The notes under the pieces were generated by a model. It was not told the DNA's origin and made no database searches. It was given only the letters and a program-made list of their open reading frames with translations. Position numbers and translations under genes: made by a program. From Candidatus Bathyarchaeota archaeon (GTDB lineage: Archaea; Thermoproteota; Bathyarchaeia; Bathyarchaeales; Bathycorpusculaceae), in the NCBI GenBank assembly GCA_963826715.1, contig CAWGYA010000008.1, positions 1,088,001 through 1,152,000 on the forward strand: a stretch of DNA of 64,000 nt, given 5' to 3'. This document shows, piece by piece, positions 31,274 to 57,993 of this stretch (position 1 is its first letter; every line of letters starts with the position of its first letter).

Positions 31274-34483
<3,210 letters not shown>

Positions 34484-38599: not shown

Positions 38600-41500
38600 T
38601 TACGTCGGTGTTTTTCTTCGTTTTAGTAGAAAAGTCACAATCGCCAAGGCTATGCAAACAATTACTACTGCTATTGCCGAAATTGTGAGGGTAGAGGAAT
38701 CTATTGTTGTTGACTTTTCGCCACTTGAGAAAACCACTGACAGGCTGTGGATGCTAAAATGTATCGTAAACCAAACGTAGTAGTTGTTTCCATCTTGGGT
38801 GAAACCTTGATTTTCTGCGATTTCATTGTCTATAAAGACGGTGGGTTTTGTTCCAAAGTGTATCTCGTTTTTAGTTACGGTTATGTTTCCAAAACCAAAT
38901 GTTCCGTTTTCCCCTGTTACTGTGAAAGAGAGTGTTGTTATTTTCGCAGTTTGGTCTACTTGGATTTTAGCGTTGGAGATTTGTTTTGTGGTTATGTTTC
39001 CGCTGACAGTAAAAAGTTCGGTTGAGCCATCAAAAACTGTTATTGGTCCTTTGGTTGCGGAGGGTGTTGGAGTGGATGTGGGCTTTGGTGTTGGGGTTGA
39101 TGTCTGTGAAGTCGTGGGGTTTGTTGTTGAGCTAGTTGAAGGTGAAATAGATTCTGATGGCTGGGCTAGGACAATTATTGATGTCGTTGTTGAGGCTGTG
39201 TTTCCGGCTACGTCTTTTACAGTTAATAATGTTATGTATGTTCCAATGCTGGAGTATGTGTGGTTTGTTGTCACTCCTGTGGCAGTTGTGCCGTCGTCAA
39301 AGTCCCAGTGATAACTTGCTATGCCTGAGTTGTCGGTGCTATTACTTCCGTTTAAAACGACACTGTTTCCCAGGGTGATGGTTTGGCTGGAACCCGCATC
39401 CGGGGTTGGAGTTGTCATGTCAAGCACTATAGAAGCATCGTAAATTGAAGTTAATCCCGCATTGTCTCTGAATTGGACATAGACAACTTTTATAGCATCA
39501 TTATTTGGGAGTTGCCAAGTTTTAGAAATTGAAAAATTTTGCCAATCAGACCAAGTAACATTGTCATTGGAAAAACGCATTGTTGCTGCATTGGAGTTAT
39601 TGTCAGAGAGTGACAATGTCAGGTTAACTGTAGTATTATTGATGTATTGGGCACTGTTTTCGATTGTGATTGAGCCTGATGGGGGCGTAGTGTCAAGGAT
39701 TATGTTGGAAGTTGCAGTGAAAATAAGTCCAGCATTGTCCTTGATTTGGTAGTAAACTGTTTTTGATCCATCGCCTGTACTTAATGTCCATGTTCTGCTA
39801 TCTTTCGGCGTCTCCCATTGGGTGTTATCCCAGACGCCATTATTGCTGAATCTTACTTGATTTATTCCCGACGTCGCATCTGTGGCTGTTAATGATAAAG
39901 TGACCAAAGCAGAGCTAGTATATGTTGCTTCATTATTAATTTGGACAGATCCTGATGGCGGTGAGGTATCAAGAGTTATTGTGCTTGAGTATGTAATTGA
40001 TTGTAAACCTGCAGCATCTTTTACTTGATAATAAACTGTTTTCAATCCATCTCCAATAGTTAGAGACCAAGCTTTTGTGTCGAACGGGTTTTCCCATGGT
40101 TCTGTATCCCATACGCCATCATTGCTAAAGCGGACCTTATCAATGCCTGATGTTTGGTCGGTGAAGGTTAAAAATAATGTTACAAAAACTGATGTAGTGT
40201 AAGCACTTGTTTGGCTTATTGAAATTGAACCGAAGGGTTGGATTGTGTCTATTTGGAAGGTGAAACTTCCGTATGTGCTGTTGTTTGCTGCGTTGTCTTT
40301 GGATTTTACATAGAAGATGTGGGTTCCATCGGTTTGGGGTGTTAATATGACAGATTTCGTTGTGGTCCAGGTTTCTGGTCCATTATCTACTCGCCAGTAG
40401 TATCCTGCTACGCCACTTTTAGAGTCATTTGCTGACCAATTGAATGTGGGCGTATTATTTGTTAACCACCCAGTGAATCCATCGTCCGGATTAGGAATTG
40501 TAGGCGGGGTTAGGTCAAGGATGAAGGTCCAAGTTGGTGACCAATCGCTCCAGCCATTGATATTGTATGCTCTTACGTGCCATGTATAAGTGCCCTCAGT
40601 AAGGAACGTTAGCTGAAAAGAGGTGCTTGTTGTATTGTAAATCCCTGGTGAGGGTCCAGAAATTTCGATTTGATAGCTTGTGGCATCTGTAGAGTTGCTC
40701 CATCTGAACAAGGCGTTATTGCTTGCATTTACATAGTTGTTGGTCGGGGTTATTTGCGTTGGGGCAGAAGGAGCAGGTATATAGTTGTAATACAGGGTAT
40801 AATTACCCGTGCTTATGTTCAAAAGATTTTTTACTCTTAAATAGTAATATCCGCTTTCTAGTATCTGAAAATTAATACGGAATTGAAAGTTGCCTCCTAA
40901 ATCGTCATCATAGGTTAACAATTTTTGGTCAGAATCATATAGATAACCGTACGTATCCATTGAGCTATTTGTGTAGAATGTATAAGTGCCTGGGCTTGCG
41001 TAGAAACGGATATAGTCGTTGTCACCTGCAGGTTCTATGCTTCTCAACTGATGCTGCAAAGAAGTGGTCACTGTCATTGAACTGAATTGAGAGAAACTAT
41101 CATCAGGTTCGTAATTATCACCAATATTTAGTGTTATTGTGGAGTAGTGGTTTTTTCCTTCGCCTGTACCGTTAATGATAAATGTATAGTTTCCATGAGG
41201 CGCGATTGGGCTTGATTGAACGGTGAATGTAGAAGTGAACGTGGGGTTACCAGACTGCTGATTGAAAATAAATGAGAAATCAGAGGTTACATTTGTGCAT
41301 GATAACGAGACAAGTGTGGATGTTCCGCTAGTCAATGTCGATGTAATATTGTAAGTTGCTGAACCCTCTGGTGCTATTGTTTGAGAGTTGGGTGACGCAG
41401 AGAGCTGAAAGTCGAATTCAGTGCTTGATGACAAAATTTGGAGCTGATCTGTCCGCCATCCACTTGAAGCCAGTAGAGTACCATAACCAGGTGGTCCCAT

Positions 41501-43408
41501 CCAAACATTCCATGATACATCATAAGATCCTGGAGCTATAGTTGGGCTTGTAGCAAATTGTCTGTTTAGTGTATTGTCTCCGCCAAGAACTTTAACATAG
41601 ATGTCATTTGAGGTATCATTTATTTCATTGATTGTTCCGTGGAGGCGGATGGATGTACCTAGACCTATCTGAATTAGGGAATAACTGCTTGGATTGTTGA
41701 TGCTATAGTTTGTTGTTAATGTGGAACCACGTACAACACTTGAAGAATCTAAAAGAGGGTTCGTCAGCGAGATATCGCTATTTACACCAAAAAAGCTGGC
41801 AAAGTTGTGAAAATTAATTGACCCTAGACCAGTTACGGCATCCCAACCGGTTTGGACAGAGTAGTATCCATTGTTTCCATATCTATAGACGTCATGGAAG
41901 GAGACATTGTACCTGTTTGTTCCGTAAATGCTGTAGAATGCGTTGTTATCTAAATTCCAATTTCCATCCAAAGCAACTGCTGCAATACCTGCCATCAAAG
42001 GCGCGGATAGACTTGTGCCACCCCAACCGGTCTGTCTATCGCCATCAATGTAAATCGTAACCCCTGAGGCGGGATCGGCGTCAAGACAAATGTCGGGGAT
42101 GGCCCGCATGCCTGAAGTATTGGGAATACCTGCATTTGCTTGAAATGCTGGTTCCAAAAATATGTTAGAGTAACCTCCACCGCTTCCGCTCCAACCATTT
42201 TCAAAGTATTGGTTAGTCCCTTGGACTGTGTTGCTATAAAGTGTGGTTCCTCCGACCGCGATTACGTTTGGGTCTGATGCAGGATACTGGACGCTAATGT
42301 TACTTCCACCATTATAGGCACCGCTATCGCCTGTTGAAACAAAAACTTTGATTCCTTTTGCTGCAGCAGCTGCTAGAATGTGGGAATAACTGTTTGTTTC
42401 TTCACCACCGAAGCTTAGGGAGATGATATCTGGTGGATTAGTTTGTTGGACAAGGGTATTGATAGCTTGAAAAAGGCTGCTATAGTAGTTGTCAGGTGCA
42501 AGTTGTAGTATTATTGCAGCCTCGGGAGCCATTGCATGAGCCCATTCAACATCCAATGCTGTTTCAGTAGCCCAGCCGCTGTCTGATCCCCCTGTTCCAT
42601 TAATTGTTAAAGATAAGGCTGGAAGTCCAAAAAGAGAATTAAAGGCGTTTACGTCCGACACTATTGTTGGGTCGCCGTATGCATCTACGATGCCAATTGT
42701 TTGCCCTGCTCCAGTCCATCCATTTCCTATGGCAGTAGATATACCGTAGGCGCTCCTGAATTCGCTTGGTGCCTTATTGTATGCAAGCCCGGCGGGTTCT
42801 GCGAAATCTGATACTTTTGTAAGGAAGGGTTGGGCTGGAAAACTATTAATGTCGATTCCTGCGATATTGCATGAATTTAATTTACTTGGTACTGCGATGG
42901 TTTGTGAACTTGAATAAAACGTAATGTTTTGGTAAGAGTATAAACCGATTTGGGTTTCAAATGCTGTTGCGACATCGTCAACGGTGCCAACTGCGTTTAT
43001 TAGCAATCGATTTTGGCTTGTCGCAGTGACATTTATGTTGTGGGCTGAAAGGTAAGACAAAACTTGGTCGTAGTCTGCTTGATGGGGTGAATATTCTGTT
43101 TCAAATTCTTCCTCTGTTAATACGTTTTGTACTCCATACGTTATCATGCGAGAGCTATCTATGAAGTTCTGCAGTTTGTCATCGTTGCGTGTGCTAAAAC
43201 CAATTGCGAATTTAATTGTGCCCTCCGTCATTTCTCCTAAACTGGTCGTTTTCGCTGAGTCAAATTCTGGGGTTCTGGTGATTGATGCCGCAGGTTGATT
43301 GCTTTTGCTTTCGGAGAGACCGCTACTATTCGGCATTAAAATTTGCGCAAACAAGATGCAAAGAAGTATAATAACAAGTATCTTGTTTGAAGCTATTACT
43401 TTACTCAA
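38600..43408 (-). CDS. Cell-surface S53 (sedolisin-like) serine protease with accessory domains
   Basis: Signal peptide, pro-domain, ETALDVEW, STGDSG, GGTSLSAP, WDAVTGLGS. Then PPC-like, FN3/Ig-like repeats, PKD, S/T/P linker and C-terminal TM anchor. Confidence 0.9.
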   Translation of the reverse strand: MSKVIASNKILVIILLCILFAQILMPNSSGLSESKSNQPAASITRTPEFDSAKTTSLGEMTEGTIKFAIGFSTRNDDKLQNFIDSSRMITYGVQNVLTEEEFETEYSPHQADYDQVLSYLSAHNINVTATSQNRLLINAVGTVDDVATAFETQIGLYSYQNITFYSSSQTIAVPSKLNSCNIAGIDINSFPAQPFLTKVSDFAEPAGLAYNKAPSEFRSAYGISTAIGNGWTGAGQTIGIVDAYGDPTIVSDVNAFNSLFGLPALSLTINGTGGSDSGWATETALDVEWAHAMAPEAAIILQLAPDNYYSSLFQAINTLVQQTNPPDIISLSFGGEETNSYSHILAAAAAKGIKVFVSTGDSGAYNGGSNISVQYPASDPNVIAVGGTTLYSNTVQGTNQYFENGWSGSGGGYSNIFLEPAFQANAGIPNTSGMRAIPDICLDADPASGVTIYIDGDRQTGWGGTSLSAPLMAGIAAVALDGNWNLDNNAFYSIYGTNRYNVSFHDVYRYGNNGYYSVQTGWDAVTGLGSINFHNFASFFGVNSDISLTNPLLDSSSVVRGSTLTTNYSINNPSSYSLIQIGLGTSIRLHGTINEINDTSNDIYVKVLGGDNTLNRQFATSPTIAPGSYDVSWNVWMGPPGYGTLLASSGWRTDQLQILSSSTEFDFQLSASPNSQTIAPEGSATYNITSTLTSGTSTLVSLSCTNVTSDFSFIFNQQSGNPTFTSTFTVQSSPIAPHGNYTFIINGTGEGKNHYSTITLNIGDNYEPDDSFSQFSSMTVTTSLQHQLRSIEPAGDNDYIRFYASPGTYTFYTNSSMDTYGYLYDSDQKLLTYDDDLGGNFQFRINFQILESGYYYLRVKNLLNISTGNYTLYYNYIPAPSAPTQITPTNNYVNASNNALFRWSNSTDATSYQIEISGPSPGIYNTTSTSFQLTFLTEGTYTWHVRAYNINGWSDWSPTWTFILDLTPPTIPNPDDGFTGWLTNNTPTFNWSANDSKSGVAGYYWRVDNGPETWTTTKSVILTPQTDGTHIFYVKSKDNAANNSTYGSFTFQIDTIQPFGSISISQTSAYTTSVFVTLFLTFTDQTSGIDKVRFSNDGVWDTEPWENPFDTKAWSLTIGDGLKTVYYQVKDAAGLQSITYSSTITLDTSPPSGSVQINNEATYTSSALVTLSLTATDATSGINQVRFSNNGVWDNTQWETPKDSRTWTLSTGDGSKTVYYQIKDNAGLIFTATSNIILDTTPPSGSITIENSAQYINNTTVNLTLSLSDNNSNAATMRFSNDNVTWSDWQNFSISKTWQLPNNDAIKVVYVQFRDNAGLTSIYDASIVLDMTTPTPDAGSSQTITLGNSVVLNGSNSTDNSGIASYHWDFDDGTTATGVTTNHTYSSIGTYITLLTVKDVAGNTASTTTSIIVLAQPSESISPSTSSTTNPTTSQTSTPTPKPTSTPTPSATKGPITVFDGSTELFTVSGNITTKQISNAKIQVDQTAKITTLSFTVTGENGTFGFGNITVTKNEIHFGTKPTVFIDNEIAENQGFTQDGNNYYVWFTIHFSIHSLSVVFSSGEKSTTIDSSTLTISAIAVVIVCIALAIVTFLLKRRKTPT

Positions 43409-44357: not shown

Positions 44358-45593
44358 CTATCTGTATCTCAAAAGTGCCGCGAACCCACCCAATGCAGAA
44401 AGTCGCGCTTTCTCTTCTGTGCCTGTAAAAATAACCTCAACTTTTGCATCTGTTTGTGCTGCTGCATCCTCCAAAACATCCACCATATCCTTTTCCACAA
44501 TCTCCCATTCTATTCCCTTGCATTTCATGCAGGGCGTCGCCAACAGCGTTTGAAGTGTAGTTGTATCTTTCTTTTTGAGTATTTCTGATTTGCCAAGACC
44601 GCATTTTTTGCATAGGGCTTCAACTTCATAGAGATCAGAATCGTCAGTTATGAGTGCAATTTCAACTGCTCCTCTCTTAAGATCCTCCAGAACAGAATCT
44701 AAACCGGTGGTCGCCAAACCTTGTTCTTTATTGAGTTCTGCTTCGAGTCGCATCATTGTCTTTTTCTCTTCTGGTCCACACATGCTTTTTAGTGTCTCGG
44801 AGGATTTGGCGAGCATTTCGCGTATGCCGTCTTCACATGCAGTTTGAGTGTCAACCACATTTAGTAGGGCATTTTTAAGTTCATAATGCAAAAAATTGCC
44901 TTTAATGAATTCGTTTTTCGTTAACCCTGGTCCACCTACAATTAGTACAGTAGCTTTTTGTTTTTCCAGAAACGCCTTAGCTGAGTGCTCGGCTATTCTG
45001 TTGAAGAAATAGGTGATTTCCATGTCGCGTTCGCGTTCGTAGCGACGTTGACTCTGTCCACCTTTGCTTGTTTTGCCGGGTACACCCGAGGTGAGGTTTT
45101 CTAAAAATTCAATGTGTTCTCCATTGCGTATGGCAATGGTTGCTTGTTTTGCGTCGATTGCGATTAAGCCAACTATTCGTTGGTCTCTTAGCATTTGTCT
45201 AAGCTGTTCCAACTCGAAATGGTTCGTTATCTCTCTATAGAATTTGTTCACGGGTTTAGGGGGAACGAGTTCTTCGATGTTTAAAGTCTCTTTATCCTGA
45301 TTGATTCCAGCAAATATTCCTGCGAAGAGTACAAGTCCATTCTCTGGCGCTTGTTTCTGCTGTTTTACCCTCAGGATTATGCCTCGGAGGGCTTCTTGGA
45401 TTCGTTGGTTGGTGTTTCTGGATTTTAAACTCGCAGTTTCAATGTCTTCTTTGAGGTTCGCCACAATGGTGTCAATTGATGCGTGAGCTGGTATGTAAAG
45501 AGAGACAAATTCGTTGTTTGTTGCTTGTTTTTCAGAGAGGTGTGCGATGAGTTTGCGTAGCTTATGTTGTTTTGCGGAATAGCTGGTTGTCAT
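44358..45593 (-). CDS. Peptide chain release factor aRF1 paralog (divergent domain 1)
   Basis: VSLYIP, ENGLVLF, VPGKTSKGGQSQRRYER, GGPG.TK, Zn ribbon, LGGFAALLRY. Start at ATG 45593 preferred. Confidence 0.85.
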   Translation of the reverse strand: MTTSYSAKQHKLRKLIAHLSEKQATNNEFVSLYIPAHASIDTIVANLKEDIETASLKSRNTNQRIQEALRGIILRVKQQKQAPENGLVLFAGIFAGINQDKETLNIEELVPPKPVNKFYREITNHFELEQLRQMLRDQRIVGLIAIDAKQATIAIRNGEHIEFLENLTSGVPGKTSKGGQSQRRYERERDMEITYFFNRIAEHSAKAFLEKQKATVLIVGGPGLTKNEFIKGNFLHYELKNALLNVVDTQTACEDGIREMLAKSSETLKSMCGPEEKKTMMRLEAELNKEQGLATTGLDSVLEDLKRGAVEIALITDDSDLYEVEALCKKCGLGKSEILKKKDTTTLQTLLATPCMKCKGIEWEIVEKDMVDVLEDAAAQTDAKVEVIFTGTEEKARLSALGGFAALLRYR

Positions 45594-45706
45594 TTGGCAG
45601 CCGTAGAAATGAGTGACTTTTTCTGTAATCATTGAGGGTACCTACTTAAAGTATCGGCGTTGCCTAATTTATCAGTTGCTCGGCTGCGATGTACTCTGAT
45701 TATGAT

Positions 45707-45991
45707 TTATGGAAAGGTGGCAAATTCGCTCCAATGCTGTGCTAAGTATGCAATTGCCCAGATAATTAAGCCTATGTAGACTACCCAAAGCCATTTAGTT
45801 ACGGGTCCTTTGGAGTCGCGGATTGTTCCTGCGAAATCTTCAGAGTTTTTTTCTGTTTCTTCAACAGTGTATTCGTCAGAGCTTCGGACAATTAAGAAGA
45901 TGGCAATTGATACTAATCCAACAATAAGTAATGTGACATATGCATAGATTGGATCAACAAATACTATGTGCGATAGAAAAGACTGATTCAA
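45707..45991 (-). CDS. Two-TM protein resembling the N-terminal membrane anchor of CcoP/FixP
   Basis: EDFAGTIRDSKGPVTKWLWVVYIGLIIWAIAY aligns by eye with the FixP_N pattern (E.DGI.E...P.P.W....F...I.....Y). GAGGAGG SD, last gene of the cco operon. Confidence 0.5.
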   Translation of the reverse strand: MNQSFLSHIVFVDPIYAYVTLLIVGLVSIAIFLIVRSSDEYTVEETEKNSEDFAGTIRDSKGPVTKWLWVVYIGLIIWAIAYLAQHWSEFATFP

Positions 45992-45993
45992 TT

Positions 45994-46140
45994 TTATTCT
46001 TCATCCTCCTCAAGGGGCAGAGAGCATAGGAAATCATTGGATTCGAACTGTTTTGTTTTAAACGCCCAAACCACAAATCCTGCAGTTATCAAAGTTATCA
46101 ACAGCGCTCCTATCGTGTAAATGAGCATGTCTATGTTCAC
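45994..46140 (-). CDS. ccoS: CcoS/FixS-like cbb3 oxidase maturation protein, 48 aa (not in ORF track)
   Basis: Manual translation MNIDMLIYTIGALLITLITAGFVVWAFKTKQFESNDFLCSLPLEEDEE (F.WA....QF motif, acidic tail). GTGA overlap with the upstream stop and an AGGAGG SD. Confidence 0.7.
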   Translation of the reverse strand: MNIDMLIYTIGALLITLITAGFVVWAFKTKQFESNDFLCSLPLEEDEE

Positions 46141-47741
46141 AACCTAAACCTCCTTGAACTGCAATTTCGTTGACTTTGCAGTTTTGTTTTTTCATAAATG
46201 ATTTTTTGTTGCTTAAACTTTAGTTCCCAAAGTGCAATCGCAGACAATATAATCATAGCAGTAGTAGTCGATGCGCCTAAACTGGTTAAGTATCCAGCGG
46301 ATTCGGGTCCGCCTTTTAGATTTCTTGCGTAAGCATCAGTGTATTGGGGTGCCCACTTGGCATTATAATCTTGAACGGTAGAAAAACTCTGAACATAAAA
46401 TATAGCCTCATAGATTTCGTTATCTGATAATGCAAATTTCCAAGGAGGCATGTTTGTTGTTTCTACCCCTTCTCGTGCTTTCCAAACATAACGTCCATAA
46501 TTTTCAAAATCGCTCCCTGATTCCGTAAAGTTGGCTGGCACTGGAATAATATAGCCGCCATTGACTTTCCCTGAAGCTGGTCCGTCTCCTTGACCATTTT
46601 CACCGTGGCATTGGGCGCAATATAGAGTGAAGAGATCTTGTCCTGCTTTGAATTGTTGTTGAGTGCCTGCTATTGGTGGCGAATTAAGGGTTGTTTGTGC
46701 GAAGTTGTCGCCTTCAGCATCGGAGATGTCACCTGATATTGTTCTTGCTGAGCCAAATACAAAACTCATCTCGTAAATTGCGATCATTTGGATTTGGGTG
46801 TTGCTTAGTGACAAACCCCATGGAGGCATAGCTGTTCCGGGTACTCCTTCGGTGACGCGCCAGATATGGTAATTATTGCCTGGGAATGTTGCGATTCTCT
46901 CGTTTAGGTTGGCTGGTTGTGTAACTACATGGCGTGCGTAAGGGCCCTGAGCGTTTCCTGAGCCACCGTGGCATGGCAAACAGCGTTGGGTATAGTTTGC
47001 TTTTGCGGTGTTATAAATTGCTGCCCATTGATCGCCTAATGATGCGTTGCCGTTGAATACGTCATTTTCTATATCGTATTGGGATAGAACTGTCATGTAT
47101 ATTGATCCAAATTGGTTTGTTGTATTCAGGTAATCTTGGGGTACTGCAGGATGGTACGCGGCGTTGTTGGTTATGGATGTCTCAACTTGGAGATTTTTTT
47201 GTCCTAAGTTTTGAATGTAGGCGATTAGGGCATCGATTTGGGTGTCGGTTAAGAAGCCGAAGTTTGGCATTATCGAACCTGGGCTTACGCTTCTTGGGTC
47301 TTTGTCGTGGGTTTGATGCCAAATAGTTGGTCGCATGCCTCCTATCTGAGCAAGGTCTGGACCCGTTCTCTCTGTCCCCAACGCGTTGGGACTGTCATAA
47401 ACGTAGTCACCTTCTTGTGAAACGTTGCCTATTCCCCAATCTGCAGCTCTAACTTGTTGAGAGTGGCAGTAGAAGCACCCTAAAGTCATGAATAAGTTTC
47501 TTCCTTCCGCTTCCTGAGTGGTGTATGTGTGAGCTGTATCGCTTGGGGGAATATCTAAAAGAAACATGTAGGGGGCAACCACCACCATGCTGACCATAAG
47601 CAGAAATACGGCTATTCCACCTGCTGCTATGGGGAATAGATTTTTGATTTGGATCTTTTTTCCTAATGTTTTAGTTTGTTTAGTTACTGACCTTTCGATT
47701 CGATCTAATCCATTTTCAAGTTTTTTTTCGGTATTATTCAT
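46137..47741 (-). CDS. ccoO: cbb3-type oxidase subunit II (CcoO) fused to two further cytochrome c domains (3 CxxCH)
   Basis: GCFYCHSQQVR, LGTERTGPDL, DPRSVSPGSIMP, plus CLPCHG...AMPPW and CAQCHG...NMPPW. Confidence 0.9.
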   Translation of the reverse strand: MNNTEKKLENGLDRIERSVTKQTKTLGKKIQIKNLFPIAAGGIAVFLLMVSMVVVAPYMFLLDIPPSDTAHTYTTQEAEGRNLFMTLGCFYCHSQQVRAADWGIGNVSQEGDYVYDSPNALGTERTGPDLAQIGGMRPTIWHQTHDKDPRSVSPGSIMPNFGFLTDTQIDALIAYIQNLGQKNLQVETSITNNAAYHPAVPQDYLNTTNQFGSIYMTVLSQYDIENDVFNGNASLGDQWAAIYNTAKANYTQRCLPCHGGSGNAQGPYARHVVTQPANLNERIATFPGNNYHIWRVTEGVPGTAMPPWGLSLSNTQIQMIAIYEMSFVFGSARTISGDISDAEGDNFAQTTLNSPPIAGTQQQFKAGQDLFTLYCAQCHGENGQGDGPASGKVNGGYIIPVPANFTESGSDFENYGRYVWKAREGVETTNMPPWKFALSDNEIYEAIFYVQSFSTVQDYNAKWAPQYTDAYARNLKGGPESAGYLTSLGASTTTAMIILSAIALWELKFKQQKIIYEKTKLQSQRNCSSRRFRL

Positions 47742-49164
47742 CGCTTAAAACCCCCTTTTGTTTAGAAATCAAGTTCAGGGTCGGTTTTGATATAATTGTC
47801 ATTATGATGTTTATGGCAAAGAGAAAAGCGGATACGACAACGATTCCGCCGCCGATAGCTCTAATGATAAAGTAAGGTGCCAAAGTTGGTAGGACTTGGG
47901 CAATTGTTTGGTGGGTAAACCAACCAGCGTTAGCTACTAACCCTGCGAGCATCATACCTAACATGAAAATAATAAAACCTAGTAGAGAAACCCACCAGGT
48001 TACATCCATGAGTTTTTTGTTGTATAGTGGTTTTCCGCTTATTCGGGGGACTAGATAGAACATCATGCCTACGATGGTGAGTCCGAAGGATGCGTAGAGT
48101 GCTAAATGTGAATGCATAACGGTCCATTGTGAATAGTGTAGATAGAGGTTCATGTCTCGGAGCGCTTGGAATGTTCCTTGAATGGAGACGAAAATATAGC
48201 ATACGAAGCCGAAAATAATGAACCTTAAAGGTACATTGCTTAAGAAAGTATGCCAGGCGCCGCGAAGTGTCATGCCGATGTTTGTTGCAAATGTTAACAC
48301 CGAAATCATCATGAGCCCACTTGTGGTGACGGCGATGGTTTTTAGCCATTCGGGAATTGAAGATTGTAATAGATGATGGCCTCCAACGCCTGTATAGAAG
48401 AATGCTAATGCGAAGAAGCTGATTAGTGAGAGGGTTACGCTGTAGAGGGCACGTTTTGAAAGTTTAGGGATAAAATAGTACCATAACGCCAATCCAAAAG
48501 GTGTGAACCAAAGACCCAGTACGTTATGTCCGTAGAACCAGTTAACTATGGCGTCAGTTAAGCCAAAAAGGGCTCCACTTGGCGGTTGCCACATGACGTT
48601 TCCTATGAAATATACAATTGGGAACCACAAAAATATCCCGGCAAAAAACCAGAGGCTTACATAGAGTTTGCGTTCTCTCCTTTTTAGGATCGTGCCAAGT
48701 ATGGTGATGCCAATTATAACTAAGGTAATCATTATCAAAACATCAATTATCCACGGCATCTCTGCGTATTCTCTGGCTTGTGTGTTTCCAACCATTATCA
48801 AAAGAATACCTGATAACACCGCAACGTTCCATAATATAGCTGCGAGCTTGCCTATTTGGGGTTTATATAATGATACTTTGCTGAGTCTCGGGGCAACGTA
48901 ATACATGGCACCTATAAGACCAGAAGATAAGAAACCAAAGAGTAAACCGTTTACATGGGCGGGTCTGATTCTTCCAAAGGTATCGAACGCTGAATCAACC
49001 AGAAATGTGGGAACAAAAAACTTAATTGCCATTATCATGCCAAAGATAACAAAAATTGGGAACCAGACTGTTGCAGCATACAACCAATATTTTGCAACGG
49101 AATCGCTGCTTTTTAAATCAACAGAATTTTTCTCTGCTTTGGCTGCTTCCAAGGTTTCTCCCAT
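47734..49164 (-). CDS. ccoN: cbb3-type (C-family) heme-copper oxidase subunit I
   Basis: FGRIRPAHVN, REYAE, WFYGHN, YY..PK, FY....GHH, W...HSH: all six His ligands present. ATG at 49164 after GGTGG. Confidence 0.93.
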   Translation of the reverse strand: MGETLEAAKAEKNSVDLKSSDSVAKYWLYAATVWFPIFVIFGMIMAIKFFVPTFLVDSAFDTFGRIRPAHVNGLLFGFLSSGLIGAMYYVAPRLSKVSLYKPQIGKLAAILWNVAVLSGILLIMVGNTQAREYAEMPWIIDVLIMITLVIIGITILGTILKRRERKLYVSLWFFAGIFLWFPIVYFIGNVMWQPPSGALFGLTDAIVNWFYGHNVLGLWFTPFGLALWYYFIPKLSKRALYSVTLSLISFFALAFFYTGVGGHHLLQSSIPEWLKTIAVTTSGLMMISVLTFATNIGMTLRGAWHTFLSNVPLRFIIFGFVCYIFVSIQGTFQALRDMNLYLHYSQWTVMHSHLALYASFGLTIVGMMFYLVPRISGKPLYNKKLMDVTWWVSLLGFIIFMLGMMLAGLVANAGWFTHQTIAQVLPTLAPYFIIRAIGGGIVVVSAFLFAINIIMTIISKPTLNLISKQKGVLSDE

Positions 49165-49307
49165 AAAAACCACCAAAATTGACAATTAAATGTCGGATGA
49201 TTATCTTTATATAACTTTTGATTACCCTGTGCTACCTATAAATTTTTATTTCCCAAAATATTTGAATAAGTTAAGAAATAAAATTATATTTTACTGGGTA
49301 GGCTGCT

Positions 49308-49751
49308 GTGGTAGTTACTTTTGAAGTAGTTCATGAGTTGATGGCGCAGGCAAATGTAGTTATCTTAATCGGCGCTGCCTTTTTGATAGTTGTTAGTCTT
49401 TTTCTTGAACGAAAAAAGAAGTGGGTTTGGCATGGCAACTCGATGATGGTAGTGATGATAATTACCGTTCTGCTGGTCCTTGCGCACATGGGGCCTTCTT
49501 TTGTTTCAGCTGTTCTTGAGGCCGTCAATAGTTTAGATATCGTTGCGGTTGTGGGTGTTATCCATGGTGTAATAGGGGTGTTTGCCCTCGTTTTAGGCGC
49601 AGGGTTAGTTTGGGTGTGGTCGATTAACGAATCAAGCAGTACAGGGTACTGTTTTTCAAGAAAAAACCTTATGTTAAAAATCTTGGCGCTATGGCTTGTT
49701 TCTTTGGGGCTTGGCGGTTTATACTACTTGTTGCACATTACTCTTGGATAA
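49308..49751 (+). CDS. Four-TM His-containing membrane protein (DUF420-like)
   Basis: K...HG..M and H...G motifs in TM helices, adjacent to the oxidase. Confidence 0.55.
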   Translation: MVVTFEVVHELMAQANVVILIGAAFLIVVSLFLERKKKWVWHGNSMMVVMIITVLLVLAHMGPSFVSAVLEAVNSLDIVAVVGVIHGVIGVFALVLGAGLVWVWSINESSSTGYCFSRKNLMLKILALWLVSLGLGGLYYLLHITLG

Positions 49752-51654
49752 CGCTTTGGTCGATTGTCGTCTTTGTTAAAGCTACATCCTTTATTAGTTG
49801 AGCGAAAATAGCCAAAGCTAATAAAATTATGCCTAGCCAAAGAAGATAAATTAATGGGTTATTTTGCACTTTCAGAGACAGGGTGTCTGAAAGTGAACTG
49901 GTGCCACTAAAGGTGTCAGTAAGGCTGTTATAGAGTTCATCTGTAAATTCTAAATGGAGGTAGATATCTCCGCTGGTTGTGCTGATTATGAGAGGTTTAA
50001 GCATTAGACCATAGTTGGGGTAGAAGCTAGCGGATATATTTCCTCTGTAACTTGTTTTGTCATCATGGACGGTTACGTCTGCGGTGATAATCGAATATTC
50101 TGAGATTACTGCTTTAGCTTGGGCATTGTAAACTTTTGATGTGCTATTATCTAAATGTATACTGTTAATTTGAATGGTTAGATTCAAAGCTTTATTGGTA
50201 GAGTTAACCTTCACATCTTCTAGTGTTGCTGAGGTTTTTGCTCCGGCGCTTACGAAAATACCTAGAAGTAAAACAATCACAGCTAAACCAAACAATCCTT
50301 GCCAAAACAACTTTTTAGTCTGAGCGGTTCTTACCTGTTTGTACACTAACCCCATTAATGTCACAATTAAAAGAGGGAGAGTTAAAGTTAGAAGAGTATT
50401 TACTGGCGCTATGCCTATCAATGAAAGGATAGCTCCTGTAACCAATGCTACTAGAACTATCAGAAATTGCCGGGCGTAGTGAGTTTTTTCGTTAAGGCTA
50501 AACCCAACTAGCGCTATAACAAATAGAACTACAAAAGGATAAGTCCACAGGCTGTATGCGAAATTGGTAAAGGCTAAACCGGCAAGGCATACGGCAGCTA
50601 TAAGGATTAATGCCCAGAATCCTACAAATGAGGAACGTGCAGTCAATGATTTTTTATCAACTTCCAGTTTGATGAGGGGTTTGCGTTTATTTTTTGATAG
50701 GTAAAAGAAGTAACCCATCATAGCAACAGCGTATGAGAGCATTACCGGGCCAATGGCGGATGAAGCATATGAATGGACTGATTGGGTTAATCCGCCGCGG
50801 GTTAAGGCGCTTAGAAATACTAGACTTGCGAATGTGAGCATAATCATTGTTTCTTGGGTTAGGCTGGTTTTTCCTTTTGAAATTTCTTTTACGATAAAGT
50901 AGGCTGTTAAAATGAGCCATGGTAGAAGTGAAGCTGTTTCCACGGGATCCCATGCCCAATATCCTCCCCACCCTAAGACGGCATATGCCCAAACGCCGCC
51001 TAAAGCTATGCCTATTGTAAGCAGCAACCAAGCCAAATGTGTTGATGCTTTAAAGAGCCTCATAGCGTCTAGGTCTTTGTTAGTTTTCAAACTTGCTAGC
51101 GAGAGTGCGAAAGCCAAAACCACAAAGGCATAAGCTGAAAAAACAATCGGCGGGTGAATTGCCATCCATAGACTCTGGAGTTGTGGGTTGAGTCCTATGC
51201 CCTGAACTGGGGTTATTGCTAAGTGTTCAAAAGGGTTTCTTAAGAGGCAAACAATTAAGAAAACAATAACCGCGATTCCCAAGACCTGATAGGTTACTGT
51301 TCGGGTTTTCTCTATTTTTTTGAGTCCCGTGATTCGCAGCAAAAAATATACTGCCATTAATATTATTGTTAATAGCAGCATTGAACCTCCTGCCCCTGCC
51401 CAGCTTGCATATATCTTGGAGAGAAGCGAGGTTCCCGTTGAGCTAAATGAGTAAACTGCTGAGTAAGAGAAGTTGTTGTTTATGAATGCTAAAAGAAGCG
51501 ACACATACAAACCTAAAATGATTAGGAAAGCAGTGGCGGAAGCGAAAATACCGCCTCCGTTTTTCCATTTTTGACTTATACCGGTTAGCGGAAAAAGTAT
51601 ATCTAATAAAATAAGCAAAACGGCTACAATTAGAAGAAATATTTCCCAGTTCAT
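49738..51654 (-). CDS. ccmF: Cytochrome c maturation heme lyase CcmF/NrfE
   Basis: W.G..GS.L, GLNP.LQ..WMAIHPP, WAY..LGWGGYWAWDPVE..SLLPW, TR.G...SVHS. Confidence 0.92.
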   Translation of the reverse strand: MNWEIFLLIVAVLLILLDILFPLTGISQKWKNGGGIFASATAFLIILGLYVSLLLAFINNNFSYSAVYSFSSTGTSLLSKIYASWAGAGGSMLLLTIILMAVYFLLRITGLKKIEKTRTVTYQVLGIAVIVFLIVCLLRNPFEHLAITPVQGIGLNPQLQSLWMAIHPPIVFSAYAFVVLAFALSLASLKTNKDLDAMRLFKASTHLAWLLLTIGIALGGVWAYAVLGWGGYWAWDPVETASLLPWLILTAYFIVKEISKGKTSLTQETMIMLTFASLVFLSALTRGGLTQSVHSYASSAIGPVMLSYAVAMMGYFFYLSKNKRKPLIKLEVDKKSLTARSSFVGFWALILIAAVCLAGLAFTNFAYSLWTYPFVVLFVIALVGFSLNEKTHYARQFLIVLVALVTGAILSLIGIAPVNTLLTLTLPLLIVTLMGLVYKQVRTAQTKKLFWQGLFGLAVIVLLLGIFVSAGAKTSATLEDVKVNSTNKALNLTIQINSIHLDNSTSKVYNAQAKAVISEYSIITADVTVHDDKTSYRGNISASFYPNYGLMLKPLIISTTSGDIYLHLEFTDELYNSLTDTFSGTSSLSDTLSLKVQNNPLIYLLWLGIILLALAIFAQLIKDVALTKTTIDQSVIQE

Positions 51655-51878: not shown

Positions 51879-52730
51879 ATGGGGTACCAGCCGCGGGCAA
51901 AGGCGCCACGAAGCACAGGTTATGGCAGCAGGAGAACGCTACGTGAGAGAAGTAGGGAAAAAAAACGCCTTCTAAAACGACCCCCTCAACAATTTCAACC
52001 CCAAAAAAACGTCCCAACTGAACAGGAAATCTCCGAAGCAACCCTTAAGCGCTTACATACATTGGGGCGCCAAAAATTCGGTTCATCCCCCTTCAACGAG
52101 CACTTTGATCGATGGCTAACTAATTTATATGCAGTTTTAGACGAATTTAAAGCGTTTCCTGGCATAGGTGTCGATGAGCAATTTCTTAATGAGTGCAATC
52201 AGGCACTTGATGTGATAAAGCTTCAATTAGACGATTGGCGCAGAAAAGAATTCTCAGTTGAGCAGGACATTAAAAATGTAGCGTATTTTCGTAGCTGTCT
52301 AAATCAAATTAACATGGAATATTCAAAAGCTCTTATGGCGATTAGAAGCAAAAGAAATCGTGCAGTTGAACTCATAACTAGTAAAATAGATGGTCTCAAA
52401 GGCGAACAGGACAAAATAATCCAGACGAAGGCGGGTCTTTTTCGTACTGTCTCAAAAAAAGCCAGAGAGCAAAAAGAAATAGTGGTGGTTGAGCAGTTGA
52501 GCGAAAAGCAGCGAGAGTTAGAGATGGTGTTCCTGGATTTTAGCACCGAAAAAAAGCAGCTTCAAGAGGAATTCGATGCTAAACGGGAGCCTATTTTGGA
52601 GCAAATGAAGAGGGTTCAGAAGAAAATCAGTGATTTGGATACCGATGCTTCACTTGAAGCTCGCTGGTTTGCTTGTGAAAGTTTGATTGATGCAGTGAAT
52701 AGTTTTATGCAAAGAAAATCTGCAATTTAG
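51879..52730 (+). CDS. Hypothetical coiled-coil protein with basic N-terminus
   Basis: 283-aa ORF, Arg/Lys-rich N-terminus, long heptad helices. Confidence 0.7.
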   Translation: MGYQPRAKAPRSTGYGSRRTLRERSREKKRLLKRPPQQFQPQKNVPTEQEISEATLKRLHTLGRQKFGSSPFNEHFDRWLTNLYAVLDEFKAFPGIGVDEQFLNECNQALDVIKLQLDDWRRKEFSVEQDIKNVAYFRSCLNQINMEYSKALMAIRSKRNRAVELITSKIDGLKGEQDKIIQTKAGLFRTVSKKAREQKEIVVVEQLSEKQRELEMVFLDFSTEKKQLQEEFDAKREPILEQMKRVQKKISDLDTDASLEARWFACESLIDAVNSFMQRKSAI

Positions 52731-55077: not shown

Positions 55078-57993
55078 TTAGCGGTTTTTCGATGCCCTAC
55101 TAAAAAGCAGAATTAGTAGCACTATAACTATAGCCACTATAACGTTAATGGGAAATAAATAATCTATCAACTCTAGTTGGTTTGTATTTGCTGACGGTGT
55201 AGGTAAAGTTGGGCTTGGCAATGGTGATGCTGTTTGTGTTGGAGAAGGTGTCGCTGTTGCTGTTGGCTGTGAAGTAGTAAGTGTTATTGCGCTTGCAAGG
55301 TTTGTTACCAAGCCCGCGTTGTCTTTTATCTGGCAATAAACGGTTTTTAACCCTTCACCACTAGTGACTTGCCACTTTTGACTGGGTGTATAATTTTGCC
55401 ATGGAATCTGGTCCCACACGTTGTTATTGCTGAATCGCATTTGGGTAACCTCCGATAAGGAAGTGGCGGTCAGGCTCAGGGTTACGCTATTCGAGGTTGT
55501 TGTTGCTTGACCATTGTTTATTTGCATTGAACCTTGAGGGGGTGTCTTTTCCAGTTTAAGATCCATCAACATTAGGTGATTTAACTCCATGTTGCCTGTT
55601 CCGTAGGCGTCCCATGTAACCCAGTATTCTAAAGTGTTGTTTGTGCTTTCTGTTGTTATGATGGGTTGACCGTTAGTGGTGACGTTGCAGATTGAACCAT
55701 TATTAACTGAATAATATATTTGTGTGCCAGCTAAATCAGATGTTAAATTTATTTCTACATTCGAGGTATGCCATGAATTAACATAGTTATAGTCGTTAGT
55801 TACTGTTGGAAGGCGAGTTATATTCACGCAAAAGTTAGAGGCGCCGTCGTTTACAACGATGCTATGTTGCCCCGCGGTTGTGGTTGGAACAGTTATAGTT
55901 GCATTGAAATTGCCGTTTGCCTCAACGGTAGTCGTGCCCAAACTGACGTTGCCGTTCCAAAGCAAAGATGCTATTCCAGGGCTGAACCATTTGCCTGCGA
56001 TAACTATAGACTGTCCGTTTTCGACAAAAACATCCGTAGTTAAATTTGTGCAGTTACCATACAGTCCTGTGGCGGTTTGATTGCCTATTTGGGTTAAGCC
56101 TCTTCGCCATTCCATGTAGGGATCTGTTGAATTGTATGAGTTGCCGTTGTGGTTGTCAGTGATTTTGAAAAAGATGTTGTTAATGCTCGGTTGATTGTCT
56201 CCAACTTGATTGTTTTGTATTAGGTCTGGAGCCGTTAATGTGTAGGTGAAGTTTTCGGTGGCTATTGCTAAGTTGTTTATTACTTGTGTCCAATCTAAGT
56301 TTATTGGGTTTAAGTAGGAAATGTTTACGGAATGACCTGTAAAGCCGTTGCCAGTTAGCGTGATTATGCCAGCGGGTGGACCAGAGGTTGGCGAAACGTT
56401 AACTGTTGGTTGTGCCATTGAATATTTTACGGTTAACGTTACATGGTCGTCTTTTATGGTGTGAACTGGCGTTTGTGTTGAGATGTTGTTTCCTACGGCG
56501 AAGTAGTTTATTATTCCAGTGTCGTTAGTTCCCCATTTATCGGGTCCTGCATCGTACACTTTCATGAAGAAGAGTTGATTGTAAAGGGAATTAGTGTAAT
56601 CCTTGAACTCGGTTAAATCAAACACAATATTATTTGAGCTAAAAGGCAGGCTGCCTCCGAGGAAAATATCACCATCCTGATTAAACTCGTCAAATGTTTT
56701 CGTAACTAAAGGTGCATTTGGGCTTCCTAACCCAAAAGTAATGTTGCAGTCTTGCCTCGATGTGTGACTAATGTTGAAGGTTGCAAGTATCTGCGGTTGG
56801 TAACCAATTAAATCTTGAGATAAAACCACGGGGTCATTTTTGGCTGAAAGCTCTGCCATAACTTGGTAAGACACCCAATAGCATCCGTCAGGCACATTTT
56901 CCCATGAGTTTGGTCCTTCTCCTATTCCCCAAGAATTAACAACCTTAAATGCGCCACTGTGCAATGTGCCATTTTCAATGTAAGAGATGCTGTCGTTGTA
57001 CCCCACAATTGTTTGGGCGTGATCCAGCCCACCGAACTGCCAATTGTCAAGGGTAAACAAATCTTGGCTGTTATCATCGGGGATGGGGACAATATTATCG
57101 TAGGCGTCAATAGCGAAAGTTGCAACGTTCCCTGCAGCCAACCAGTTTTTTAGGTTTGTTATGCCGTTTGTTTCGTTGACGTAAATGTATTGGTAACTGT
57201 AGGTGCTGTTTGAACGATAATACGGTGCTTGAGCCCACGCAGCCTCTGAAGGCCACGCATTGCATTCGCTCTGATTATAGGGCATGTTTAGCCAAGAACT
57301 GACGCCAATAGAGCACATAACCATGATAGGTCCCTCCAAGGAACCGCCAATATCTGAGCCATTATTAACTAAGTTGTAAACGAAGGCTGGACTCATAATT
57401 TCGCTTTGATAGGGAGCAGAGACATGACCGTTGTCATAGTGGCCAGGAGAATATTCATAATTGTTTGACCCATCGTACACCCATGTTGCTTGGCTTAAAT
57501 TCCATTGGTGCTCCTTCGCTTCCTGATAAGATTTGGCGTAATAAACATTAGCAAAAAAAGAACATGAACCCTGTGTGCCTTGGTCGCCAATAGGTGGGAA
57601 CCATGCAGTTTGGGATAGGTCCACTGCATTTGGTATTGATTCTGTATATAAAACTTCATCAACCACGTAACCGTTTTTTGCTATATCGTTCCACTCGCTG
57701 GGGGTTGGAGGAGTTAAACCTGTTCCGTGTCCATCAACAATCTGGTTATAGTTTTTCCCTCCTTGGTAAACACCAACGCTACTTTCGTAGGCTTTAAGCT
57801 CGTTTGAAGTCATCTTATGTTCTTTCAAGCCTAAGTTGCCATAATTCACCTGTGTAGATGAGTAAATTTGGTTTGAGGCTGAATTCTTAGACGTTTGGGC
57901 AGTAGCGTAACTATTGTGTAAACATGAAATAGCAAGGGGTAAAAGTAAAACAGCGATGACGACTAAAACTTCTAACTTTAAGTTTCTGTGCAC
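55078..57993 (-). CDS. Cell-surface C1A (papain-like) cysteine protease
   Basis: Signal peptide, DQGTQGSC, SPAFVYN, HAQTIVGYND, VVNSWG, Ig-like domains, T/P linker and C-terminal TM. Confidence 0.88.
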   Translation of the reverse strand: MHRNLKLEVLVVIAVLLLPLAISCLHNSYATAQTSKNSASNQIYSSTQVNYGNLGLKEHKMTSNELKAYESSVGVYQGGKNYNQIVDGHGTGLTPPTPSEWNDIAKNGYVVDEVLYTESIPNAVDLSQTAWFPPIGDQGTQGSCSFFANVYYAKSYQEAKEHQWNLSQATWVYDGSNNYEYSPGHYDNGHVSAPYQSEIMSPAFVYNLVNNGSDIGGSLEGPIMVMCSIGVSSWLNMPYNQSECNAWPSEAAWAQAPYYRSNSTYSYQYIYVNETNGITNLKNWLAAGNVATFAIDAYDNIVPIPDDNSQDLFTLDNWQFGGLDHAQTIVGYNDSISYIENGTLHSGAFKVVNSWGIGEGPNSWENVPDGCYWVSYQVMAELSAKNDPVVLSQDLIGYQPQILATFNISHTSRQDCNITFGLGSPNAPLVTKTFDEFNQDGDIFLGGSLPFSSNNIVFDLTEFKDYTNSLYNQLFFMKVYDAGPDKWGTNDTGIINYFAVGNNISTQTPVHTIKDDHVTLTVKYSMAQPTVNVSPTSGPPAGIITLTGNGFTGHSVNISYLNPINLDWTQVINNLAIATENFTYTLTAPDLIQNNQVGDNQPSINNIFFKITDNHNGNSYNSTDPYMEWRRGLTQIGNQTATGLYGNCTNLTTDVFVENGQSIVIAGKWFSPGIASLLWNGNVSLGTTTVEANGNFNATITVPTTTAGQHSIVVNDGASNFCVNITRLPTVTNDYNYVNSWHTSNVEINLTSDLAGTQIYYSVNNGSICNVTTNGQPIITTESTNNTLEYWVTWDAYGTGNMELNHLMLMDLKLEKTPPQGSMQINNGQATTTSNSVTLSLTATSLSEVTQMRFSNNNVWDQIPWQNYTPSQKWQVTSGEGLKTVYCQIKDNAGLVTNLASAITLTTSQPTATATPSPTQTASPLPSPTLPTPSANTNQLELIDYLFPINVIVAIVIVLLILLFSRASKNR

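Follow-up and report, generated by a model that had tools for sequence, protein, structure and literature searches.

The 64,000-nucleotide window analyzed here (G000:C8:1088001-1152000, in the host genome labelled G000) comes from a soil Bathyarchaeon, and its positions 45707-51654 hold six open reading frames (ORFs), five on the minus strand and one on the plus strand. We consider it probable that these six genes form a self-contained cassette for a variant cbb3-type (C-family) O2 reductase in an otherwise anaerobe-type archaeon. In order of transcription, the minus-strand genes encode a CcmF-like haem lyase, CcoN, a CcoO fusion, a 48-aa protein and a 94-aa protein, and the plus-strand gene for a 147-aa DUF420-like protein sits between the ccmF-like gene and ccoN. 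Each of the six reading frames is uninterrupted within the window. The gene list that the initial annotation had drawn up from the sequence (ccoN, ccoO with three haems, ccoS, a FixP_N-like gene, a divergent DUF420-like gene and ccmF) was found to be correct item by item, coordinates included. The NCBIfam scores of the window proteins all fall under the curated equivalog cut-offs, indicating that these proteins are divergent members of their families.

CcoN is predicted to be an O2 reductase of the C-family

The ccoN gene (47734..49185, minus strand) encodes the catalytic subunit I, with 483 aa from the first TTG (476 aa in the library entry of this protein, P0001). The protein matched PF00115 (COX1) at an E value of 1.2e-78 and the ccoN profile TIGR00780 at 3.5e-83, versus 9.2e-12 for CtaD. 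Its best solved relative is the P. stutzeri CcoN (3mk7_A, E 3.6e-65), and its matches to other solved haem-copper oxidases (HCOs) were far weaker (NorB 3o0r_B, 5e-9; a second NorB chain, 8e-7; ba3, about 1e-10). In the alignment with 3mk7_A, H77/H360 (haem b), H358 (haem b3) and H220/H270/H271 (CuB) align with P. stutzeri H60/H347, H345 and H207/H257/H258, respectively, and the cross-link tyrosine Y264, which lies in helix VII in the motif FYTGVGGHH, six residues before HH, aligns with Y251. The six His ligands and the Tyr before GHH that had been read from the sequence were thereby confirmed, and these seven residues are invariant in ten relatives with 44-81% identity. The Ca-site residues E139/E142 (P. 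stutzeri E122/E125) are also kept, as are T228, Y236, S253 and Y330 (P. stutzeri T215, Y223, S240 and Y317) and the equivalents of N333 and H337, which are counted among the residues of the proton-input channel in the P. stutzeri structure; they too show no variation in the ten relatives. P. stutzeri H243 and E323 are replaced by Ser and Gln, respectively, throughout this clade.

In Murali et al. 2024 (PMC11214002), a missing active-site Tyr serves as the mark of nitric oxide reductases (NORs), which are defined by the lack of this Tyr together with a fourth (Glu) FeB ligand. The window CcoN does not fit this definition, since the Tyr is present and invariant and the NorB matches are weak; by the criterion of Murali et al., the retained Tyr points to an O2 reductase rather than a NOR. 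The assignment to the C-family made in the initial annotation is therefore borne out by the ccoN profile, the cbb3 structure match and an active site of the O2-reductase type, and high-affinity activity is predicted for the enzyme. ccoN is the sole HCO gene in G000.

CcoO is fused to a dihaem cytochrome c

The ccoO gene (46137..47741, minus strand), whose start overlaps the stop of ccoN by 8 nt, encodes a 534-aa fusion of CcoO and a dihaem cytochrome c with a C-terminal membrane helix. The protein matched FixO over residues 43-170 (E 4.1e-34) and Cytochrome_CBB3 in two stretches, and contains three CxxCH motifs (CFYCH, CLPCH and CAQCH). It also matched NF011054 ("subunit II/cytochrome c") at 2.9e-40, under the cut-off, the solved cbb3 CcoO chains at 4e-24 to 2e-20, and the dihaem protein 6h5l_B at 4.6e-13 over residues 246-453. 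A separate dihaem CcoP subunit is thus absent as such: the dihaem domain (residues about 246-453) is joined to CcoO, and only the anchor is separate. This architecture, a dihaem domain fused to CcoO with a split anchor, is common to the whole clade of related oxidases from anaerobes.

The two-helix 94-aa protein (45707..45991, minus strand) contains a FixP_N-like segment that scored under the cut-off (E 7.4e-5; 22.8 bits versus 24.9). In 45 of the compared loci, Bathyarchaeal and other, a homologue comes directly after the oxidase gene, and the 94-aa protein is the predicted CcoP membrane anchor, retained as its own gene. The single-helix 48-aa protein (45994..46140, minus strand) resembles both CcoS (FixS) and CcoQ (FixQ). 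Its window copy matched FixQ at 5.1e-4 (20.4 bits) and FixS at 6.6e-3 (16.6 bits), both under the Pfam cut-off; among ten orthologues, FixS matched eight (best 2.6e-8) and FixQ seven (best 4.7e-7). Because the orthologues match both families alike, the protein is referred to here as CcoS/Q-like.

The CcmF-like protein is most likely a stand-alone cytochrome c synthase

The ccmF-like gene (49738..51654, minus strand) encodes a 638-aa protein that matched PF01578 (Cytochrom_C_asm) at 1.4e-29, TIGR00353 (CcmF/NrfE) at 2e-45, under the cut-off, and the solved CcmF 6zmq_A at 1.4e-36 by sequence. Its AlphaFold2 (AF2) model (pLDDT 72) matched 6zmq at 6.4e-17, with TM-scores of 0.69/0.74 over 642 columns, and CcsBA 7s9y at 0.086 only. 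The WWD domain (WGGYWAWDPVE) and the periplasmic H167 and H294 (P-His1 and P-His2) show no variation among 11 orthologues. At the positions of the two transmembrane His of canonical CcmF (TM-His1 and TM-His2), which, from work on the E. coli and T. thermophilus proteins, are taken to be the haem-b ligands, it has I254 and G456, and no invariant His was found between residues 295 and 566 in the 11 orthologues. From the 150 top-scoring cluster representatives of a whole-library search, we took the 96 that are full length (560-720 aa) and compared these columns in them: P-His1 and P-His2 are His in all 96, TM-His1 in 89 and TM-His2 in 90, and six other CcmF clusters also lack both transmembrane His. 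A fused CcmE was considered for the C-terminal beta domain and was ruled out, as the whole chain superposes on 6zmq and aligns end to end with NrfE.

A census of CxxCH motifs was taken across G000. Such motifs occur in 42 of the 9845 ORFs of at least 50 aa, and three of them occur together in the ccoO fusion only. The other ORFs comprise 26 short ones with a single motif and 15 with two motifs or at least 150 aa; these 15 were scanned, and none was a cytochrome: they were UvrA, HNH, ParB, three integrases, DnaJ, an aminoacyl-tRNA synthetase, CCG, a DUF255 thioredoxin-like protein, a radical-SAM protein, PIN and three without family. The ccoO fusion is the only c-type cytochrome found in G000.

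The CcmF-like protein is likewise the sole PF01578 match in this genome, and CcmC was not found in G000. Across the genus, a CcmF-like gene of about 640 aa is present in all 16 CcoN-positive species genomes, always adjoining ccoN, and in none of the 104 CcoN-negative ones; no other PF01578 gene scored over the cut-off in nine of the 16. CcmE was found in none of the 120 genus genomes and was detected in the control, M. acetivorans. The claim that the oxidase comes with its own maturation genes therefore holds in that these are carried in the cassette, but the "ccmF" is not an ordinary one, since both haem-b His are gone and no CcmC or CcmE partner was found. For a CcmF-like protein that has lost the b haem, in genomes in which CcmE was not found, the simplest reading is a synthase dedicated to one client. 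We suggest that the ccoO fusion most likely has the CcmF-like protein, acting by itself, as its cytochrome c synthase, because the fusion is the sole c-type cytochrome found, neither CcmC nor CcmE was detected and the haem-b His are lost.

Separately, a short PF01578 gene of the CcsA/CcmC-like type, with open frames of 134-393 aa, was observed in about 20 genomes of the genus, both among those that have the oxidase and among those that do not (for example, G014:C1:115118-115483 and G070:C116:5225-5629).

Candidate assembly factors and haem supply

The DUF420-like gene (49308..49751, plus strand), which overlaps the 3' end of the ccmF-like gene by 14 nt, encodes a four-helix membrane protein. 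The window copy has no Pfam match, and DUF420 (PF04238) matched eight of 12 orthologues at E values up to 10 (best 4.4e-6). In the Atlas, a language-model look-up, 29 of 30 matches lay in DUF420-bearing sets (score 0.95). The AF2 model (pLDDT 86) shows four helices; a Foldseek search of the PDB with this model returned no match at E <= 0.001, the top weak rows being oxidase subunit III chains at E > 2. H42, G43, N44, M46, M61, H86, C115 and M122 are invariant, and the gene stands beside the cassette in 17 Bathyarchaeal loci. These data suggest that the DUF420-like protein is probably an oxidase assembly factor. A second DUF420-like paralogue was observed at G000:C2:163281-163607, 33% identical over 116 aa to the cassette copy. 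The DUF420-like gene and ccoN diverge from an AT-rich spacer of 122 bp (49186..49307), in which TATA-like runs (TTTATATA and TATAAAT) were read by eye and which presumably holds divergent promoters.

Of the dedicated assembly genes ccoGHIS and senC, those for CcoH (FixH) and SenC (SCO1) were sought in the 16 cassette genomes, and each was found in none of them. The sole candidates for an assembly factor are the CcoS/Q-like peptide and the DUF420-like protein. Genes for haem precursors form a hemA-hemL-hemB-hemC-hemD-SUMT cluster on the contig of the cassette, together with a sirohaem-type dehydrogenase gene and cobalamin genes.

Candidate electron donors

Among five genomes searched, none encodes cytochrome b, a plastocyanin-type cupredoxin (PF00127) or MqnA/D of the futalosine pathway, and the Rieske proteins found are only small ones of a soluble type, of about 110 aa. 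The lack of a quinol:cytochrome c reductase and of ccm genes, first noted for the window, thus holds genome-wide. In G000, two NuoH-type membrane complexes are encoded, and neither Cu-oxidase_3 nor bd oxidase was found. The bd oxidase subunit I is present in five of the 120 genus genomes (G087, G016, G004, G123 and G130), none of which carries the cassette. The flanks of ten non-Bathyarchaeal related loci revealed no recurring redox partner, their neighbours being unrelated, in a scan in which Pfam was run on 70 of 120 greedy-called ORFs after short, overlapping and FixP_N ones had been dropped. As a guess, the donor might be something other than a cytochrome, such as a membrane quinol, a phenazine-like carrier, or external Fe(II) or reduced humics.

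The cassette belongs to an anaerobe-type Bathyarchaeon

The host genome comprises 2.64 Mb in eight contigs (96% complete, 3% contaminated), and the cassette lies on a 1.29-Mb contig, flanked by archaeal housekeeping genes. Elsewhere in the window are genes for Topo VI A/B, a proteasome subunit, FttA, CGI-121, Cbf5, SepF and LarC, and an archaeal 23S rRNA gene lies 12 kb from the cassette. The host had been taken for a member of the Bathyarchaeia from its sequence, and indeed every one of the nearest loci (65-85% identity) carries Bathyarchaeota or Bathyarchaeia in its title. Its anaerobe-type metabolism is also borne out: the genome encodes a carbon monoxide dehydrogenase/acetyl-CoA synthase (CODH/ACS), and CdhC, a subunit of acetyl-CoA synthase, was detected in all 20 genus genomes tested (13 with and seven without the cassette), G000 included. 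Since CdhC is kept in the host genus, the label "presumed anaerobe" is a fair one.

Contig chimerism, which the initial annotation had named as a finding that would overturn its reading, is unlikely in view of the archaeal flanks, the related loci and the coverage by read contigs. The GC content is level across the locus, and the same cassette occurs in 15 further species genomes of the genus, two of which are single-contig. The Logan short-read contigs of run X1 reach every one of the 30 bins between 42.5 and 54.5 kb, with no joints; one piece spans aRF1, FixP_N, the 48-aa gene and ccoO, and another spans ccoN, the spacer and DUF420. At the junction of ccmF and the neighbouring hypothetical gene hyp283, depth is present and no bridging piece was seen among the X1 contigs listed. 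Among the sequencing runs listed for the locus, none is an RNA run.

Distribution, gain and loss of the cassette

The ccoN cassette is carried by 16 of the 120 species genomes of the genus (14 of the 73 high-quality ones), with CcoN 74-87% identical to that of the window in the 15 others. Among 401 sampled Bathyarchaeia, 11 carry CcoN at an identity of at least 65%, in five genera of three families, and every Bathyarchaeal locus compared has the cassette genes in the same order. Beyond this class, the CcoN proteins closest to that of the window (51-58% identity) are from Chloroflexota/Dehalococcoidales, Methanolobus (isolate M. vulcani PL 12/M), the anaerobic methanotrophs ANME-2, Methanoperedens (many), Syntrophales, Clostridia and Desulfosporosinus, whereas the proteobacterial cbb3 CcoN is about 36% identical. 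Sparseness of C-family oxidases in Archaea is described in the available part of Murali et al. 2024 (PMC11214002). The initial description of these enzymes as rare in archaea is only partly right, in view of the counts above and the sister forms in Methanoperedens, Methanolobus and ANME-2. As a separate observation, G274, G334, G357, G396, G408, G423 and G436 of another genus (g122) encode a distant HCO, 25-31% identical to the C-terminal half of CcoN, which may be the Sulfolobus-like Houtuousia oxidase described in the accessible text of PMC10321748.

Phylogenetic analysis of CcoN (a quick maximum-likelihood IQ-TREE search with 71 rows, unrooted, excluding frame-split CcoN loci and high-scoring segment pairs under 420 aa) united the 14 Bathyarchaeal rows as a single clade (SH-aLRT 100), nested within a well-supported group with Methanolobus/ANME-2, Chloroflexota, Syntrophales and Bacillota. 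Methanoperedens stands beside that group, and the proteobacteria are far off on a long branch. CcoN, for which a phylogeny had been proposed as a check, thus groups with the cbb3-type oxidases of anaerobes. Acquisition of the cassette, as suggested earlier, is plausible, but as the tree is unrooted and comes from a quick search only, we claim neither a donor nor a direction of transfer.

Comparison of loci within the genus bears on how the cassette came and went. In G000, it is located between hyp283 and a gene for a paralogue of the release factor aRF1, and G126 shows the same arrangement. In the oxidase-less G060, the homologues of hyp283 and aRF1 (61% and 64% identity) stand about 850 bp from each other and nothing intervenes, and the aRF1/hyp283 interval is the apparent insertion site of the cassette. 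FixP_N-like fragments found beside the aRF1 paralogue in the ccoN-less G048 (L121 231-416; 59% identity over 64 aa) and G115 (L127 1289-1456; 50% over 56 aa) resemble what remains of a cassette after its loss. Other genomes have the cassette at different sites. Together, the empty site, the remnants and the other locations suggest that the patchy distribution results from loss and relocation of a 6-kb unit. G107:C14 (L018 and L057) carries two full cassettes about 0.8 Mb apart, with ccoN split into two frames in both, reflecting either assembly indels or real decay.

Comparison with known systems

Compared to the canonical CcoNOQP of P. stutzeri (3mk7/5djq), the Bathyarchaeal enzyme shares the CcoN fold, the metal and haem ligands, the Tyr, the Ca-site Glu residues, most channel residues and a monohaem CcoO partner. 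Different from the canonical enzyme, it is only about 36% identical and separated by a long branch, its CcoP dihaem domain is fused to CcoO with a separate anchor, Ser and Gln replace H243 and E323, CcoH and SenC were not found in the cassette genomes, and its archaeal host has no bc complex. It is closer to the fused CcoN-CcoO-dihaem oxidases of anaerobes (NF011053-like), with which it shares 51-58% identity, three haems and a split FixP_N-like gene downstream. Those oxidases are encoded by a single ORF of 880-985 aa, whereas the Bathyarchaeal one is encoded by two overlapping ORFs, and by tblastn the CcmF-like, DUF420-like and 48-aa genes are found only in Bathyarchaeal loci and not in fused-oxidase loci. 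One Clostridiales fused-oxidase locus likewise adjoins maturation genes, those for ResB and ResC. In Methanolobus vulcani PL 12/M (L033 1090-5427, 9310-11757), the fused oxidase was observed to be flanked by genes for a CbbQ/NorQ-type AAA+ protein and a 1140-aa VWA protein, with a P-type ATPase gene on the other side.

CtaM/DUF420 is an assembly factor of aa3-type oxidases in Firmicutes. The Bathyarchaeal DUF420-like protein resembles it in being a small four-helix membrane protein encoded beside an HCO; it differs in being very divergent and paired with a C-family enzyme, and its role is putative.

The cassette shares with the archaeal System I of M. acetivorans, as far as described in the available part of Gupta et al. 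2022 (PMC9084895), a CcmF-family lyase that operates without CcmH, CcmI and CcmD. However, M. acetivorans needs CcmABC and CcmE together with CcmF, each of them being required, whereas neither CcmC nor CcmE was found for the Bathyarchaeal cassette, whose CcmF-like protein lacks both haem-b His. The Houtuousia oxidases (Hou et al. 2023, PMC10321748) are also terminal oxidases of soil Bathyarchaeia, read as a (micro)aerobic adaptation; in the parts of that paper available, they are Sulfolobus-like, come from metagenome-assembled genomes that have neither the Wood-Ljungdahl pathway nor pyruvate:ferredoxin oxidoreductase, and are called genus-exclusive. Unlike these, the oxidase here is of the C-family and its host retains CODH/ACS.

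Oxidases of Bathyarchaeia have so far been reported for Houtuousia only, and these are of another type. In full-text searches, we came across no publication connecting cbb3 or ccoN with Bathyarchaeia, describing this cassette or treating the fused form of anaerobes, although the supplements of Murali et al. 2024 and Hou et al. 2023 may list the cassette. Newly recognized here are the single c-type cytochrome, the failure to find CcmC and CcmE, the lost haem-b ligands of CcmF, the empty site and the mutual exclusivity with bd oxidase.

Proposed function and alternative explanations

In the mechanism we propose, electrons would pass from the three c haems on the outer face to haem b and on to haem b3-CuB, where O2 would be reduced to water with protons from the cytoplasm; the oxidase would in this way clear trace O2 and contribute to the membrane potential. 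The CcmF-like protein would take haem at the WWD/P-His site, as CcmC or CcsA do, and attach it to the ccoO fusion, while the DUF420-like and CcoS/Q-like proteins would aid the insertion of haem b/b3 and CuB, replacing CcoH and SenC. A bolder version, which we offer only tentatively, is a natural one-protein System I, in which a CcmF without b haem takes haem at WWD and serves one trihaem client without CcmABCDE or CcmH, so that a single transfer could equip cytochrome-less hosts with an O2-reducing enzyme; lacking an internal donor chain, this enzyme would take its electrons from extracellular reductants.

Three alternatives to this role can be weighed. The enzyme might mainly reduce or detoxify NO or another N-oxide instead of O2: C-family oxidases reduce NO in vitro at high concentration (as given in the excerpts of PMC11214002), cNOR and qNOR represent their closest sister families, the related fused oxidase of Methanolobus vulcani adjoins the CbbQ/NorQ-type AAA+ and VWA genes, and the E323 equivalent is Gln in this clade. 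Yet Y264 and the three-His CuB site are invariant, whereas Tyr loss marks NORs in the same excerpts; CcoN is much closer to solved cbb3 than to NorB (3.6e-65 versus 5e-9); and no NO source is seen in G000, in which no other c-type cytochrome, hence no cd1 NirS, and no Cu-oxidase_3 match were found. We therefore regard NO as an improbable main substrate. Somewhat less remote, although still unlikely in our view, is true microaerobic growth, that is, energy-conserving respiration through an internal chain that goes beyond O2 scavenging. Such growth would fit the two NuoH-type complexes, a cassette intact in 16 species, protons for water formation drawn from inside (so that any turnover conserves energy), and the distribution of the cassette (16/120) and bd oxidase (5/120), which never overlap in the genus, as if they filled one niche. 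It is opposed by the search for an internal chain, in which no quinol:cytochrome c reductase (cytochrome b in 0/5 genomes, small soluble-type Rieske proteins only), futalosine genes or soluble carrier was found, by the retention of the O2-sensitive CODH/ACS, and by the 104 of 120 congeners that live without the cassette. It seems very improbable that the cassette is a passenger without function that is subject to drift, or that its cytochrome cannot be matured in this host. The distribution is patchy, canonical assembly genes were not found in the cassette genomes, ccoN is broken in frame in some long-read genomes, both G107 copies included, and two genomes that lack the oxidase have FixP_N-like remnants next to the aRF1 paralogue; but in the window all six ORFs are open with invariant catalytic residues, CcoN conservation across the genus (74-87%) exceeds that of neighbours such as the aRF1 paralogue (48-64%), WWD, P-His1 and P-His2 of the CcmF-like protein are invariant in 11 orthologues, and the gene order is preserved across at least five genera of the class.

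Several observations nevertheless weigh against a working O2 reductase matured by the CcmF-like protein. No electron donor can be named from the genome, so a working chain could not be reconstructed. For haem, the AhbD profile (TIGR04545) gave many radical-SAM matches in G000, the best at 347 bits versus a cut-off of 500, which leaves the last archaeal steps to haem b unproven, and HemB was not found in the cassette-bearing G001 and G022. In maturation, seven of the 16 cassette genomes hold a second, short PF01578 gene of a type also present in cassette-less genomes; CcmC and CcmE were sought with Pfam profiles on six-frame translations, which a very divergent or non-homologous chaperone would escape; and CcmAB are not separable from other ABC transporters by these profiles. 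As all of CcmABCEF are needed in M. acetivorans, a route with CcmF alone would be unprecedented in archaea. Finally, with Ser and Gln at the H243 and E323 equivalents, pumping or kinetics may differ from those of the P. stutzeri enzyme.

If the cassette does encode an O2 reductase, about one in eight species of this genus would carry a conserved, predicted high-affinity oxidase, which would change how their survival at oxic-anoxic boundaries should be modelled. The cassette would also be a compact test bed for the enzymology of a cbb3-type oxidase without a bc complex, and a CcmF relative that apparently needs neither CcmC nor CcmE, nor a b haem of its own, for the maturation of one cytochrome bears on the minimal cytochrome c synthase and on the role of the b haem in CcmF.

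Flanking genes and other features of the window

On one side, the cassette is flanked by the gene for the divergent second aRF1 paralogue (44358..45632, minus strand; eRF1 domains 1-3), which lies 75 nt downstream on the same strand and outside the oxidase unit; on the other side is hyp283 (51879..52730, plus strand), an ORF encoding a 283-aa hypothetical protein. The second aRF1 is 34% identical to the other aRF1 of G000, which is encoded elsewhere on C8, and has orthologues in 76 of the 120 genus genomes at 48-64% identity. It adjoins the cassette in G000 and G126, and stands on the opposite side in L011 and G119. The protein is fast-evolving and has a GGQ motif, and its NIKS region was read by eye as shortened to TASLKSR.

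The archaeal 23S rRNA gene (31367-34400, plus strand) is solitary, no 16S or 5S gene being detected at the Rfam gathering score within the 64-kb window. Two very large secreted or anchored proteins are also encoded on the minus strand, one of 1602 aa (38600-43408) with a pro-kumamolisin activation domain and PKD domains, and one of 971 aa (55078-57993) with no Pfam match. By eye, both share a repeated C-terminal module, "...RFSNN.VWD...W...YYQ.KDNAGL".

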